A stretch of 64,000 bases of DNA from an uncultured Clostridiaceae bacterium. Its GTDB lineage: Bacteria > Bacillota > Clostridia > TANB77 > CAG-465. The translations under genes were made by a program, and so were the position numbers. The stretch is from positions 41,970 to 105,969 of the forward strand of contig CANCXL010000001.1 of the NCBI GenBank assembly GCA_947381905.1, given 5' to 3'. The notes under the pieces are model-generated. The model was given only the letters and a program-made list of their open reading frames with translations, was not told the DNA's origin and did not search any database. This document shows positions 30,507-35,113 of this stretch, one piece after another. Numbering within the stretch: the first letter of the stretch is position 1; the number at the start of each line of letters is the position of its first letter.

Positions 30507-30545
30507 ATAAATGTCAATTATATTGACATTTATTTTTTTTTATAA
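30507..30545 (+). terminator. rho-independent terminator after the clpX-like gene
   Basis: AAATGTCAAT / ATTGACATTT stem followed by a T9 run. Confidence 0.6.
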
Positions 30546-30588
30546 TAAAATTTAAATAGTAAAAATTCACGAGATTGGAGGTAAAATT

Positions 30589-31284
30589 ATGGACTTTAAA
30601 GCATTAGAGGGAAAAAACGTTGAGATACAGGTAGGAGACAATACATATAAAAGACACGCAATAGAAACACACTACATTCAACTTGGTGAAAGTTATATCG
30701 ATATTGTAAAACAATATGTTTCTCCTATATATGAAGAGGGAGATATTGTTTCGTTTAGTGAAAAGATAATTTCTTTATGTCAAAAAAACATTGTATACAA
30801 AAAGGATGTCAAAGTTTCAGGACTTGCTAAATTCTTATCTAAATTTGCTATGAGAAGCGATGCTGGTGTTGGAGTAGATAATCCATATAAAATGCAATTT
30901 GCTATAGATCTTAATGGAAGACTAAAAGTAATATGGGCTGCAATAGCAGGTGGTATTTGTAAATTATTTGGTAAGAGAGGAGTTTTCTATGAAATTGTAG
31001 GTCAAGAAGTAAGTGGACTTGACGGATTTTATGGAGATGTATTCTCAGATTATTCTGAATTTGGAATTAGAATTCCAAAAGATCCAAACGGAGTATGTAA
31101 TGAAATCTATAAAGCAACAGGTGTAAAATCTATGATTGTTGATGCTAATGATTTCAACCAAGAAATCTTAGGAAAAGCAGATGCAATTGAATATACTGAT
31201 GAAGAACTTATTGGTATGATTAAAGATAATCCATGTGGACAAACAAAAACACTTACACCAATGGTATTAATTAGAAAACAATAA
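30589..31284 (+). CDS. CofE-like (F420-0:gamma-glutamyl ligase family, COG1478-like) protein; tentative
   Basis: Length and motifs (SDAGVGVDN, DANDFN) resemble the CofE-like family. RBS GGAGG. Confidence 0.4.
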   Translation: MDFKALEGKNVEIQVGDNTYKRHAIETHYIQLGESYIDIVKQYVSPIYEEGDIVSFSEKIISLCQKNIVYKKDVKVSGLAKFLSKFAMRSDAGVGVDNPYKMQFAIDLNGRLKVIWAAIAGGICKLFGKRGVFYEIVGQEVSGLDGFYGDVFSDYSEFGIRIPKDPNGVCNEIYKATGVKSMIVDANDFNQEILGKADAIEYTDEELIGMIKDNPCGQTKTLTPMVLIRKQ

Positions 31285-31324
31285 TACATAAGATAAAAAA
31301 TTATCAAAGAAAAGAGGTTGAATT

Positions 31325-31906
31325 ATGGATAGTTTATTGCAGATGAATAAATTTGAGGTTATGGATTTACCTGGAATGAACACATTAGCTTTTTTAGTTG
31401 AAAGAGATTTAGACGCATATAACCAAGGTTATGCATTCTTATCTCTTGAAAAATTAAGAAGCGTTGAAGTACAAGAAGCAGGACAAATTAAAAAGATTTT
31501 TAATGTGCTAATTGAAGATCCAGAGGATGAAGACGATATTGTTCTATTAACTTTGACAGATAAAAAAGCTTTTTTAAGCACAGGAATATTAGATAAAGAT
31601 GGATTTAGAACACAAGCTACTAATGTTCCTTTAAGTTATGGATCAATATTTAATGTTGAAGGAATTGAGTATAGAGATGTTGCTTATACACCAGATATGA
31701 AAAGAAACTTCTCAATAATAGATTCGCAAACAGGAGAAGAAGTAAAACCTTCTCTTTATAGAGATGAAAATGGTGAGGTTAAAGGTAGATGTAAGATTAT
31801 GCCTAATAGACCATATATTGTTCTTGAAGTAAAGGTTACAGAAGAAGCTATGGCAAGACATATAATGATGGAACAAGAAGCAGAAGCAGAAGAAAGTATA
31901 ATATAA
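31325..31906 (+). CDS. hypothetical protein with acidic C-terminal tail
   Basis: ORF with RBS GAGG. C-terminus EQEAEAEESII. No recognisable domain. Confidence 0.5.
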   Translation: MDSLLQMNKFEVMDLPGMNTLAFLVERDLDAYNQGYAFLSLEKLRSVEVQEAGQIKKIFNVLIEDPEDEDDIVLLTLTDKKAFLSTGILDKDGFRTQATNVPLSYGSIFNVEGIEYRDVAYTPDMKRNFSIIDSQTGEEVKPSLYRDENGEVKGRCKIMPNRPYIVLEVKVTEEAMARHIMMEQEAEAEESII

Positions 31907-31919
31907 GGAGGAAAATAAA

Positions 31920-32111: not shown

Positions 32112-32150
32112 TAGTTACACTATAAAATTTTATAGAGAGGGATATGTAGA

Positions 32151-34316
32151 ATGAGTAGAATTTTCGATGAATTCAAAGAAAAATTACCATTACTTGTTAC
32201 ACTATCTGGTGTAGCATCTGTAGTAATTGGAGGTTCATTAACAAAGGCTATTGTAGATGCAAAGCTTGCAGGTTCTAAATCAATACTTGCAGATGCGGTA
32301 ATGAATAGTATAAATAATATAACTAATTTTTCTTTTCTTACAGGTATGTTTGCAGATTTTGGTTTATTTTTAAAAATCACTTTAGGTATATTTGCAATAG
32401 TATTTATATTGTATTTTATGGCTAAATATAATGAATCTAATAAGAGCGAATATGAGGGAAAAGAAAATGGTTCAAGCCAATGGAGTAATGGTACCGAAGA
32501 TTATAAACATGACTCTAATGGTAAAGAAATATTAAACAAAAAAGAAGGATTTATATTAAGTAGAAAACACTATTTAGGAACAGATCTTAAAAAAGTTGGT
32601 ATAAACAAAAATATACTAGTAGTCGGTGGTTCTGGTGCTGGTAAAACAGCATGTTATATTAAACCTAATATTATGCAATGTTTAGGATCATATATTATTA
32701 CTGACCCTAAAGGTGAACTATATAAAGAGACTTCTGAATATTTAAAAAGAGAAGGTTACGAGGTTAGAGCATTTAATCTTGTTAACCCAACATATAGTGA
32801 TTTTTATAACCCTATATCTAATATTTGTTCAGACCAAGATGTTGATACATTAGCACATATTCTTGTTACTGGTGCAAATAAAGAAGGTGGCGGTGGAGAT
32901 GACCCATTTTGGGATAACACTGCAAAAATGCTTATATGTGCAACTATATATTATGTATTATCTGTATTACCTTTAGAACAACAAAATATAGGAAGTTGTT
33001 TAAATATTATTCGTCAAGGTGGTGCGGATAGTTCTATATTTGAAAAATTATTTATAGATGACTTAAAACCTGAACATCCAGGTAGAATACAATACGAATC
33101 ATTTAAAACTGCTGCAGATAAAACAATGCAAAGTATTGTTATTTCTTCTATTTCTAAAATGCGTGTATTTGATATGCCAGCAATTCAAAGAATTACATCA
33201 TCAAATAGTATAGATTTTAGAAGTGTAGCAAAGAAGAAGACAGTTATTTATGTTATTACATCAGCTGCAGAAAGTACATATGATTTCGTATCTACAATGT
33301 TCTTTAGCCAGATGTTTTCTATATTATATAAACAAGCAGATGATTATGGCTCAAGGCTACCAAATCAAGTATATTTCTTACTAGATGAGTTTGCAAATAT
33401 TGGTCAAATACCAGACTTTCAAAAGAAACTTTCTACTACAAGAAGTTTAGGTATAAGTATATCAATAATTGTTCAGTCTCTTGACCAATTAGAAGCTTTA
33501 TATAAAGAATCTTATGAAAATATTCTTGGTAACTGTGATACACAGTTGTTACTTGGTACAAACTCACAAAAAACTGCAGAGTATTTTTCAAAGAGTTTAG
33601 GACAAACAACAATAAAAATACAACAAAAATCTATCAACAAAGATAAAGATGAATCTAAAAAACAAGGTGTATCTATAAGTACTCAAAGACAAGCAAGAGA
33701 CCTTATGACAGTTGATGAAATAAGAAGATTAGATAATAATAAAGAAATTATTATGGTTAGAGGTTTAAAACCAATTCTTGCAGAAAAAGCATGGTATTAT
33801 AAATATCATCCAAAGAAAGATATAATTGAATCATTAAAAATAGCAAGTATCAAGGAAATGCCAATACCAGAAGCAGTTCCATATTCATATTTTGATGTTC
33901 AACAATATTTAGCTGATAGAAAAAGAAGAGCTCAAGAAATATTAAAATCTAGATCAAAAGATGTAGAAGTAGATACTTCTTCAATGAGTTCTGCCTCAAC
34001 ACAGTCTTCTCAAACAACATCAAAAGATGATTTCCAAATAGATTTAGGAACACCATCTGCAACACAGACTCAAGCCAAACCATATTCTGCTCATAAAAAT
34101 AGAGAAGCAGAGATTGATACAAGTCCACTTGCAGAAGGAATGGGAAGCGCTTCATATAATGATTTATATGAAAATAGCGATTTTGATCCTATTTCACATG
34201 TTTCTAAAAAGAAAAAATCATCTTCATCTTCTAGTGACGATTTTGATTTACAATCAGAACTTGAATCTAAATTTGACAAATTGTTTGGAAGTTCTGGAAG
34301 CAGTAATGATTTTTAG
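32151..34316 (+). CDS. VirD4/TraG-family type IV coupling-protein-like ATPase (orphan), N-terminal TM helices, Ser/Asp-rich C-terminal tail
   Basis: Walker A VVGGSGAGKT followed by ITDPKGE, and Walker B-like FLLDEFANIG, both typical of TraG/VirD4. Two N-terminal TM segments. Low-complexity acidic C-terminus. Confidence 0.7.
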   Translation: MSRIFDEFKEKLPLLVTLSGVASVVIGGSLTKAIVDAKLAGSKSILADAVMNSINNITNFSFLTGMFADFGLFLKITLGIFAIVFILYFMAKYNESNKSEYEGKENGSSQWSNGTEDYKHDSNGKEILNKKEGFILSRKHYLGTDLKKVGINKNILVVGGSGAGKTACYIKPNIMQCLGSYIITDPKGELYKETSEYLKREGYEVRAFNLVNPTYSDFYNPISNICSDQDVDTLAHILVTGANKEGGGGDDPFWDNTAKMLICATIYYVLSVLPLEQQNIGSCLNIIRQGGADSSIFEKLFIDDLKPEHPGRIQYESFKTAADKTMQSIVISSISKMRVFDMPAIQRITSSNSIDFRSVAKKKTVIYVITSAAESTYDFVSTMFFSQMFSILYKQADDYGSRLPNQVYFLLDEFANIGQIPDFQKKLSTTRSLGISISIIVQSLDQLEALYKESYENILGNCDTQLLLGTNSQKTAEYFSKSLGQTTIKIQQKSINKDKDESKKQGVSISTQRQARDLMTVDEIRRLDNNKEIIMVRGLKPILAEKAWYYKYHPKKDIIESLKIASIKEMPIPEAVPYSYFDVQQYLADRKRRAQEILKSRSKDVEVDTSSMSSASTQSSQTTSKDDFQIDLGTPSATQTQAKPYSAHKNREAEIDTSPLAEGMGSASYNDLYENSDFDPISHVSKKKKSSSSSSDDFDLQSELESKFDKLFGSSGSSNDF

Positions 34317-34329
34317 TATAATAAAAGGA

Positions 34330-34362
34330 TTTAAGAGTATTGTCTTAAATCCTTTTTTCAAG
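34330..34362 (+). terminator. rho-independent terminator
   Basis: AAGGATTTAAG / CTTAAATCCTT stem followed by TTTTTT. Confidence 0.6.
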
Positions 34363-34420
34363 TCTTATTTCTTGTATATTTATAATCTATATAGTATAAT
34401 TTAGATATGTGGAGGAATAT

Positions 34421-35113
34421 ATGGATAAAGTAAAAGGGATATCTATTATAATTATTGCAATTGTATCAGTAATCGTTATGATATTTATAGCAAATATGTT
34501 ACTTGATACGACTGGTACAATAAATCAAGGCAATTTTAGAGTTAGTGATGTAATTATTGAATCTTCTGCATCTTTGACAGAAGTTCAGGACGATAAATTA
34601 GAGGTAAAAAAATTATCAGATTTTGTTTTTGATGTATCACAAACAAATACAATTTCTATATTATTAGAAGCAAATACAGAAGCTTCTCAAATAAAGATTG
34701 AAAATTTAAAAATAGAAGAGCCAATATTAAAAGGAAATATGAATATTTGTCAAAAAGATTATGATAAATATAATATTACACCAGAGCTTACTTCGATTCC
34801 TATATATTTAGAAAGAGAAGATGGAAAATATATAATAAGATTATTATTAGATAATGATAAAGTTATTATGGACAAAAGCGTAGATGATACTATAGAGGAG
34901 ATACAATATGATGCTACAATATTTAAGACTTTAAATATAAATACTGATGATTTAAAATTTAAAGTTTCATTCGATCTTGTAATTACAGATAATGTTGGAA
35001 AGACGGTATCTACTACTATATCTATGAATATGCCAACAGATGAAACTTTTCTAAAAGGAATGTCAATCTTAAGGCAAGATGCATCAAAATATATATTTAC
35101 AATAATTAAATAA
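34421..35113 (+). CDS. hypothetical membrane-anchored protein (N-terminal TM, extracytoplasmic domain)
   Basis: ATG at 34421 preferred (GGAGGA lies inside the track's GTG-start extension). Single TM helix. Confidence 0.5.
   Translation: MDKVKGISIIIIAIVSVIVMIFIANMLLDTTGTINQGNFRVSDVIIESSASLTEVQDDKLEVKKLSDFVFDVSQTNTISILLEANTEASQIKIENLKIEEPILKGNMNICQKDYDKYNITPELTSIPIYLEREDGKYIIRLLLDNDKVIMDKSVDDTIEEIQYDATIFKTLNINTDDLKFKVSFDLVITDNVGKTVSTTISMNMPTDETFLKGMSILRQDASKYIFTIIK

Follow-up and report, generated by a model that had tools for sequence, protein, structure and literature searches.

Type IV coupling proteins (T4CPs) are, to our knowledge, regarded as substrate receptors that are meaningful only in combination with the channel of a type IV secretion system (T4SS) and, for DNA transfer, with a relaxase. 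The closest described relatives of the protein considered here are the CD1115-family T4CPs of Firmicute plasmids and integrative and conjugative elements (ICEs), whose canonical neighbours are DUF3801, VirB6 (CD1112), PrgI, VirB4 (CD1110) and an SLT hydrolase. Points of comparison are also offered by the Dot/Icm system of Legionella, with the C-terminal extension of DotL, the small acidic adaptors IcmS, IcmW and LvgA and Glu-rich 'E-block' C-terminal signals, and by TraD of the F plasmid, whose acidic C-terminal tail with its terminal Phe inserts into the relaxosome protein TraM. The rvh T4SS of the Rickettsiales is encoded by genes, virD4 among them, that lie scattered across the chromosomes of reduced genomes, with VirB4, VirB6 and VirB8-11 all being identifiable. 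Here we analysed a T4CP gene (32151-34316, + strand) in a stretch of 64,000 nucleotides, referred to as the window, from an uncultured Clostridiaceae bacterium (GTDB lineage TANB77, CAG-465; assembly GCA_947381905.1, contig CANCXL010000001.1, positions 41,970 to 105,969 of the forward strand). An earlier, sequence-only reading of this DNA had described an operon-like block that pairs an orphan T4CP-like ATPase with a CofE-like protein and two small acidic proteins. We consider it highly probable that the core of this locus is a vertically inherited chromosomal trio, which consists of the beta-sandwich protein p193 of a new family, a small, rapidly evolving protein (p63 in the window) and an intact, membrane-anchored T4CP.

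On profile and motif evidence, the 721-residue product of 32151-34316 is an unambiguous T4CP. It scored 431 bits against NCBIfam NF045973 ('VirD4-like conjugal transfer protein, CD1115 family'; cut-off 250) and matched the Pfam families T4SS-DNA_transf (PF02534, 5e-84), TraG-D_C (PF12696, 4e-38) and TrwB_AAD_bind (PF10412, 1e-29), all above their gathering scores, as well as the structure of Cag5 (VirD4), 8dol. The hallmarks that had first suggested this family, two N-terminal transmembrane (TM) helices and the Walker motifs, were thus confirmed, and so was the family itself by the TraG-D_C and TrwB_AAD_bind profiles. The protein is laid out as two N-terminal TM helices (residues 12-31 and 65-94), an ATPase core that holds Walker A (GGSGAGKT), Walker B (FLLDEF) and an all-alpha domain, a Ser/Asp-rich linker and a conserved C-terminal helix, FDLQSELESKFDKLFG. 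The long Ser/Asp-rich tail noticed at the outset is reflected in the composition of the last 126 residues (24% Ser, 11% Asp). Both Walker segments, G159-K165 and D412-F414, were invariant in an alignment (A1) of 18 T4CP sequences with 52-100% identity, and the protein is predicted to be membrane-anchored and catalytically intact. No DNA-binding domain and no FtsK-gamma-like domain was found in the Pfam scan. On the 3' side of the variable Ser-rich linker, all 78 related loci described below encode the lineage motif [FI]DLQxELExKFDELFG, the C-terminal acidic amphipathic helix, while the extreme C-terminus varies (...SSNDF in the window, ...NDDY or ...NSDF in near relatives).

With the CD1115-family T4CPs of plasmids and ICEs, the protein therefore shares the same two TM helices, the same T4SS-DNA_transf/TrwB_AAD_bind and TraG-D_C domains, intact Walker motifs and an acidic amphipathic helix near the C-terminus. 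In contrast to these proteins, its gene is chromosomal, vertically inherited and syntenic with gyrA and dnaX, and the identity to the plasmid proteins is at most 36% and confined to the ATPase core. The canonical neighbours of the plasmid genes were not found near the trio. Instead, the T4CP gene is preceded by p193, which is absent from plasmids, and by a small open reading frame (ORF) that often bears a distinctive tail.

The identical T4CP was found on 23 contigs in the same context, and homologues graded in identity from 99% down to 49% were recovered from metagenome-assembled genomes (MAGs) of Clostridia. A scan of species-representative genomes yielded 78 T4CP loci (numbered with the prefix L), of which 69 could be scored for p193 and the CofE-like gene and 76 for the small ORF and its tail. 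They belong to uncultured Clostridia of rabbit, chicken, ruminant and human guts, including Clostridium sp. CAG:465, CAG:1219, CAG:921 and CAG:780. The gene order gyrA, (ClpX-like), CofE-like, (VanW), p17x-19x, small ORF, T4CP, p23x, ffs-dnaX-ybaB-recR is kept down to approximately 50% T4CP identity. Besides this position between gyrA and ffs-dnaX, the trio occurs in two other chromosomal contexts, which likewise consist of housekeeping genes, one with rarA, lytR and a penicillin-binding protein gene upstream and prfB, mutS and mutL downstream, the other downstream of dnaX-ybaB-recR ... sleB-ypeB ... and a dnaJ-like gene and upstream of sbcCD. A p193 homologue lies immediately upstream of the T4CP gene in 68 of the 69 loci with enough sequence, and an ORF of 44-145 residues separates the two in 73 of 76. 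On this comparative evidence, obtained by tblastn over the loci and by gene-level annotation of selected ones, the conserved unit is the trio of p193, small ORF and T4CP. Across the loci, the identity of the T4CP to that of the window is correlated with the corresponding identities of p193 (r = 0.95), recR (r = 0.91), gyrA (r = 0.86) and dnaX (r = 0.80). Because the trio co-diverges with recR and gyrA, we infer that it is inherited vertically, and not as part of an ICE, in a clade of uncultured, low-GC gut Clostridia whose genomes are apparently small.

The first of the two partners, p193 (31325-31906, + strand; 193 residues), is an acidic all-beta sandwich protein with an isoelectric point of 4.5 and the founding member of an undescribed family. 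It had been described together with p63 as one of two small acidic proteins, which holds for p193, whereas p63 (31920-32111, + strand; 63 residues), though rich in Lys and Glu as stated, is near neutral with an isoelectric point of 7.9. p193 had no match in a sequence search of the PDB and none among 72,556 plasmids, and the family lacks the invariant histidines of an HUH relaxase site. Homology within the family holds even in the most distant group, in which the T4CP is only about 39% identical (hhalign probability 99.6%). We also compared p193 with DUF3801, the gene preceding plasmid T4CPs, and found the two to be unrelated (hhalign probability 0.3%). The small ORF is conserved in its position and hypervariable in sequence: tblastn with p63 found no homologue in any locus, even where the T4CP was 82% identical, and the small-ORF sequences could not be aligned.

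What recurs in the partners is their C-terminal end. Small ORFs of the main clade close with a run of acidic residues and then two hydrophobic ones (...EDEPII, ...GEDDMII, ...EDGMIV, ...DDELII), with a consensus of about G-E-D-D-[MLP]-I-[IV]-COOH; examples include L020, L023, L029-L033, L041 and L043. In the subclade of the window itself, the small ORF has no such tail, and it is the C-terminal helical extension of p193 that carries it, ending in ...EAEESII here (encoded at 31880-31906) and in ...EESIV, ...EADEMI or ...EDSIV in relatives. Altogether, 45 of 76 loci have the tail motif, 34 of them in the small ORF and 11 in p193, and never in both, against a background of 1.6% of ORFs. Two loci, L040 and L071, have no small ORF, and their p193 itself ends in ...GDEKIV and ...EQDGLIV, respectively; since the small ORF is gone and p193 ends in the tail, the small ORF appears to be fused to p193 in both. 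On comparative grounds, the mutual exclusivity of the tail and these apparent fusions argue strongly for joint action of p193 and the small protein and for a function of the tail as a short linear motif.

In part of the clade, the T4CP gene has a further peculiarity. Among 62 species-level loci that could be scored, the T4CP frame of 16 is broken at one identical site within Walker A, ...GTN GTN GG(A/T) C GG(A/T) TCN GGN GCN GGT AAA (L055, positions 10440-10470, L056, L057, L059-L062, L065, L066, L068-L070, L073, L075, L076 and L090). At this site the 0 frame reads VVG-R-I-W-C-W-stop, so that it ends after five codons. A shift to the +1 frame recovers G-GSGAGKS and, in 15 of the 16, gives a further 486-522 codons without a stop. 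The equivalent site in the window, 32622-32645, is intact, and the window gene is not frameshifted. All 16 species share GG(A/T) CGG (A/T)TC, with the surrounding codons varying synonymously; because of this variation, and because the assemblies come from unrelated projects, a sequencing artefact can be dismissed. In several of these genes, a stop codon lies directly upstream of the site in the +1 frame, so that independent initiation there is precluded. CGG is the rarest sense codon in these genomes (14 of 70,643, 0.2 per 1000), and Gly is most often encoded by GGA. In a neighbour-joining tree, the frameshifted genes are spread across several subclades, which suggests that an old site was lost repeatedly, or possibly reflects errors of the tree. 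In L090 (10464-10860), only 130 codons follow Walker A before the +1 frame closes, and the best high-scoring segment pair resumes at query residue 291, which indicates a second interruption or an insertion; this gene may be a real pseudogene.

We consider the Walker A site a candidate for programmed +1 ribosomal frameshifting of the hungry-codon type. Examples of this type are the yeast element Ty3 and the mitochondrial genes of glass sponges, in which +1 shifts occur at the extremely rare CGG_(A) with the inserted base 5' of GGA (Atkins et al., PMC5009743). The orthologues of the window gene, though not the window gene itself, resemble these cases in the sequence GGA C GGA, with CGG in the 0-frame A site and GGA as the +1 codon. 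In contrast to them, the candidate site is bacterial and lies in a T4CP gene inside Walker A; the review mentions neither T4CPs, VirD4 or TraG nor Walker motifs. A site of this kind would show that the T4CP gene is expressed and under selection, and possibly regulated.

The sequence-only reading had further stated that no conjugation genes occur within tens of kilobases. The mobility of the locus was assessed from the precomputed Pfam annotation of an identical contig and from scans of our own, which covered the window and 10 kb upstream of it (about 74 kb). No relaxase, VirB4 or integrase was found in this region, and linkage of the T4CP gene to VirB4 and a relaxase was seen neither there nor, by tblastn with plasmid VirB4, VirB6 and PrgI, within +/-10 kb of the T4CP in the 78 loci. 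Direct repeats resembling att sites around the block amounted to short, imperfect, AT-rich matches at chance level. The base composition is uniform, with about 28% GC in the window and 28-29.5% in the block and its flanks, and dozens of species share the synteny. The marks of an ICE or an integrative and mobilizable element (IME), namely an integrase or recombinase, a relaxase, att repeats, anomalous composition and patchy distribution, were thus all missing. The block is not inside an ICE and is a resident chromosomal module, as had been supposed. The only clearly mobile gene in the window is an IS3-family insertion sequence at 3377-4743 (an HTH_Tnp_1 ORF and an rve integrase-core ORF), approximately 27 kb from the T4CP gene.

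The statement on conjugation genes has to be qualified in one respect, because approximately 12 kb upstream of the block, directly upstream of dnaD/dnaI, three genes on the + strand (18578-20024) possibly encode dispersed membrane components of a T4SS. The first (18578-18901; 107 residues) gave a marginal match to T4SS_pilin (PF18895, 28.1 bits; cut-off 26.6), and its signal-like helix and two TM helices form a VirB2-like topology. The second and third, a 262-residue multi-TM protein (p262, 18901-19689) and a 112-residue protein with two TM helices (p112, 19686-20024), are characterised by their topology only. In sizes, order and TM topology the three match genes of the Clostridium botulinum plasmid pCDC3875, in which the CD1115-type T4CP is followed by a 111-aa gene, VirB6 (260 aa), PrgI (132 aa), one further gene and VirB4. 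The three genes stay syntenic in the relatives L011, L015, L097, L022, L024, L043 and L064. Their link to the T4CP is conjectural.

One of the MAGs (L095, GCA_045537895.1, contig JAZSQI010000042.1, positions 1-17200) carries a second T4CP copy, sister to its own chromosomal copy, in an ICE-like element with two large proteins (one with an Amidoligase_2 domain), HU, two sigma-70 region-4 proteins and a large serine recombinase. There is no p193 homologue upstream of this paralogue. The 181-aa gene at that position was compared with p193 and found to be unrelated to it. Since the paralogue resides in a mobile-type element, the T4CP lineage can still exchange with mobile DNA.

While the trio in the window is preceded by a CofE-like gene (30589-31284, + strand; 231 residues), the relation of this gene to the T4CP is looser than that of the other two. 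The four genes from 30589 to 34316 form one co-directional operon, as had been proposed from the ORF positions, with intergenic gaps of 40, 13 and 39 nt and the Shine-Dalgarno sequences GGAGG, AGAGG, AAGGAGG and GAGAGGGA in this order. The bounding terminators are also real: the hairpins at 30505-30535 (z -4.9) and 34323-34356 (z -5.2) are each followed by a U-run, and folding against shuffled sequence revealed no internal terminator within the operon, the intergenic regions not being folded. The CofE-like protein alone reached 24.9 bits against PF01996 (cut-off 25), with its N-terminal 60 residues only, and had no match in the PDB sequence search. In comparison, 27 of 28 members of its family match PF01996 (best E = 8e-15), and the family profile matches the CofE structures 7uld, 2g9i and 2phn at E = 6e-4. 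It is therefore likely a genuine but distant member of the PF01996 (F420_ligase) superfamily, and not the equivalog of any named ligase (TIGR04132, 29.7 bits against a cut-off of 350). The expected conservation of all four genes across genomes was observed for p193 and the small ORF but not for the CofE-like gene, which is present in 41 of 69 loci. It adjoins p193 in about 18 of them, and in about 23 the two are separated, within 3 kb, by a VanW-domain gene. This cell-wall gene with VanW, G5 and PG_binding_4 domains (L012, 7212-8993; L013, 7414-9117; and about 23 other loci) is absent from the window. The 28 loci without the CofE-like gene include 5 of 40 gyrA-syntenic ones and all those of the non-syntenic contexts and of the distant clade, where the trio persists. 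Because it is found in just 41 of 69 loci, we regard the CofE-like gene as a syntenic neighbour that is co-transcribed here, yet is not an obligate partner of the T4CP.

How the module works can only be proposed tentatively. The T4CP hexamer would sit in the cytoplasmic membrane, with p193 and the small protein as a dedicated pair of adaptor and substrate, and whichever partner bears the acidic-hydrophobic tail would use it as a docking or translocation signal for the T4CP. ATP hydrolysis would then drive export of the tail-bearing protein, or of its bound cargo, across the membrane, either directly or through a minimal, genomically dispersed T4SS-like channel, of which the pilin-like trio at 18.6-20.0 kb is a candidate part; no VirB4 was seen. 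In part of the clade, synthesis of the full-length T4CP would be gated by the +1 ribosomal frameshift at the CGG inside Walker A. The roles of the tail as a signal and of p193 as an adaptor are suggested because other T4CPs read C-terminal signals or bind small acidic adaptors, as in DotL-IcmSW and TraD-TraM. The likeness to Dot/Icm is one of concept, in that a T4CP with a long C-terminal extension is encoded alongside small acidic partners and acidic C-terminal motifs near hydrophobic residues are present. However, Dot/Icm is a Gram-negative system with a full type IVB secretion channel, none was seen for the trio, and we treat the likeness as a lead that implies no kinship in sequence or fold. 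Similarly to TraD, the window T4CP combines a flexible linker with an acidic C-terminus as a possible binding site for a partner, but the module has neither a TraM-like protein nor a relaxosome, and its most conserved element is the internal helix FDLQxELExKFDELFG and not the extreme C-terminus. With the rvh genes it has in common that T4SS-type genes are chromosomally fixed, vertically inherited and unclustered, whereas here only a marginal pilin match and two uncharacterised membrane proteins accompany the T4CP.

Taken as a whole, the statement of what the module is together with how it works falls somewhat short of an even chance in our estimation. The T4CP has probably been repurposed for a transport job. 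A clade-wide, T4CP-centred translocation without a canonical T4SS (no VirB4, no relaxase), in which the tail is recognised and the partner or its cargo is exported alone or via a highly divergent minimal channel, frameshift-gated in part of the clade, is a doubtful proposition as it stands. Several results weigh against the mechanism proposed here. No VirB4, VirB6 or PrgI homologue was found within +/-10 kb of the T4CP in the 78 genomes, nor in the 74 kb around the window gene, by tblastn with the proteins of one plasmid, so that no transport channel is at hand. p262 was rejected as VirB6 after tblastn, Pfam and NCBIfam gave no match and hhalign against the plasmid VirB6 a probability of 0.2%; it has only 10 detectable homologues, and its AlphaFold2 model, built from only 9 sequences, is unusable (mean predicted local distance difference test score 44.7). 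p112 as PrgI had no match by BLASTP, tblastn, Pfam or NCBIfam. The fold of p193 is a generic beta sandwich that gives no functional clue, and the small ORFs of the distant clade (L078-L093) have a different ending, ...QDREQDER. A looser version of the C-terminal helix, EDLRDELEKLFE, ends the pCDC3875 T4CP, for which reason the helix may be ancestral to the CD1115 family. Together with the paralogue of the same lineage in the ICE-like element of L095, with its serine recombinase, this leaves some probability to a conventional conjugative role, and a VirB4 elsewhere in the genome could make the module dispersed but conventional.

In an alternative explanation, the T4CP would be a conventional coupling protein encoded by the host, acting in DNA conjugation or mobilisation with a relaxase and T4SS located elsewhere in the chromosome, either dispersed or in ICEs/IMEs, with p193 and the small protein as relaxosome or accessory factors in the plasmid position of DUF3801. 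The T4CP is a full member of the CD1115 conjugal-transfer family and shares the related C-terminal helix with the plasmid protein; on pCDC3875, typed in PLSDB as a mobilizable plasmid with a MOBP relaxase, the accessory gene DUF3801 precedes the T4CP and the genes that 18578-20024 resembles follow it, the first of them with a T4SS_pilin match in the window, and the sister paralogue lies in an ICE-like element with Amidoligase_2. On the other hand, neither relaxase nor VirB4 is near the T4CP in any of the 78 genomes, p193 is unrelated to DUF3801, absent from plasmids and without invariant HUH histidines, the ICE-like paralogue has no p193, and the trio co-diverges strictly with housekeeping genes in apparently small genomes; we judge this explanation unlikely. 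T4CPs belong to the FtsK-HerA ATPase superfamily, and a stand-alone FtsK/SpoIIIE-like ATPase that pumps DNA or acts on nucleoprotein in division, sporulation or repair, with the small proteins as regulators, would account for the absence of channel genes. It would also suit the position of the trio among replication and repair genes in all three contexts (gyrA, dnaD/dnaI and dnaX-ybaB-recR; rarA, mutS and mutL; sbcCD) and the spore-germination genes sleB and ypeB of the clade. Since this neighbourhood may be plain synteny, the T4CP lacks a DNA-binding or FtsK-gamma-like domain, and the tail motif and the beta-sandwich partner suggest protein recognition more than the handling of DNA, such a role seems improbable to us.

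The first gene of the operon raises the question of a functional quartet, in which the CofE-like protein, as an enzyme of the gamma-glutamyl-ligase type, would, for example, extend the acidic tail of p193 or of the small protein by further glutamates, or attach them to the T4CP. Co-transcription in this species, the proximity to p193 (directly adjacent in about 18 species, no more than 3 kb away in about 23 others), the likely membership in the PF01996 superfamily and the acidic tails of the partners are all in accordance with it. We nevertheless give it little credence, as the gene is missing from 28 of 69 loci, its product is conserved at 71-94% identity among loci, more like a housekeeping enzyme, and the family extends far beyond the trio (781 representatives at the 50% cluster level). 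That the block is a decaying remnant of an integrated conjugative element, or an anti-phage or anti-plasmid defence gene, has been largely refuted and is very improbable. It would fit a T4CP family typical of mobile elements and the IS3-family transposase elsewhere in the window, but the ORFs are intact, the catalytic residues are invariant across the clade, the T4CP co-diverges with core genes, the GC content is uniform, and att-like repeats and an integrase are lacking. An association with a defence island, raised in the sequence-only reading, found no backing: the PADLOC matches of mad8 to the T4CP (22 bits) and of IetA to the ClpX-like protein (about 20 bits) are far below significance, and no defence genes are nearby. 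PADLOC-DB 2.0 gave no significant match for any protein of the block, and none at all for p193, p63, the CofE-like protein and the p234 membrane protein, and a PHROGs scan of the block returned nothing significant.

The surroundings of the operon are those of a housekeeping region, with mutS/mutL, miaA, ksgA, tRNAs, dnaD/dnaI, gyrA, rnpB, ffs-dnaX-ybaB-recR, murI, a two-component system and tatD in the window. The rnpB and ffs-dnaX setting pointed out earlier was confirmed by Rfam matches at 28775-29107 (rnpB) and 35162-35247 (ffs). On the + strand, the terminator hairpin of the upstream ClpX-like gene (30505-30535, followed by a U-run; -12.1 kcal/mol, with 0 of 200 shuffled sequences folding equally well) overlaps a promoter-like site, the two together spanning 30505-30551. 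The latter, TTGACA-17-TAAAAT at 30523-30551 (TTGACA at 30523-30528, TAAAAT at 30546-30551), matched 11 of 12 positions in the promoter scan. The operon ends at an intrinsic terminator (34323-34362, + strand), whose hairpin has a folding energy of -15.8 kcal/mol. Beyond it lies a separately transcribed gene (34409-35113, + strand) for a single-pass membrane protein with one TM helix at residues 4-38, a syntenic neighbour outside the core module; the ATG at 34421, preceded by GGAGG, is its likelier start and gives 230 residues, as called on an identical contig. Its homologues, with 25-71% identity, are found in 44 of 78 loci, only in those syntenic between gyrA and dnaX; the other contexts lack them. 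A comparison of the 234-aa membrane proteins on either side of the block showed that these two are not paralogues.

Directly after rnpB lies a gene for a ClpX-like AAA+ protein (29248-30489), which at 173 bits stays well below the ClpX cut-off of 359 and is therefore a paralogue rather than clpX itself. This protein weakly resembles the anti-phage ATPases IetA/IteA. Only 12 of the 78 related loci have it at this position, and it follows local synteny only. The longest dnaX ORF, which begins with the TTG at 35190, overlaps ffs; more probably, dnaX starts at the ATG at 35259, which yields the 511-aa product called on identical contigs. Further upstream, at 12295-15645, four consecutive genes have no family assignment (318, 320, 191 and 181 aa); the 318-aa protein shows weak similarity (E = 2e-16, far under the cut-off) to the small subunit of archaeal DNA polymerase II (PolD), probably via a shared phosphoesterase-type domain.

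The literature search yielded no paper on an orphan chromosomal T4CP in Clostridia, nor on the partner families or the migrating tail motif. A study that refers to a conserved pilin of TANB77 (PMC11680825) was considered for this locus and set aside, as it concerns a Tad pilus cluster. As no described system in PADLOC, PHROGs, the PDB or the literature matches the block, it stands as the candidate undescribed system it had been taken for. While the T4CP family itself is known, its status as a core gene throughout a clade, the two partner families, the tail motif that migrates between them and the lack of the canonical neighbours are new.

The trio would be a clear exaptation of a conjugation gene, in which a T4CP has become fixed in the core chromosome of a whole clade with no channel genes in sight. 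With the recoding site of the orthologues, a further case would join the few bacterial examples of hungry-codon +1 frameshifting, here within a catalytic motif. The tail motif moving between two partners, the C-terminal helix of the T4CP and the p193 family would furthermore provide handles for how T4CPs of Gram-positive bacteria recognise their clients.

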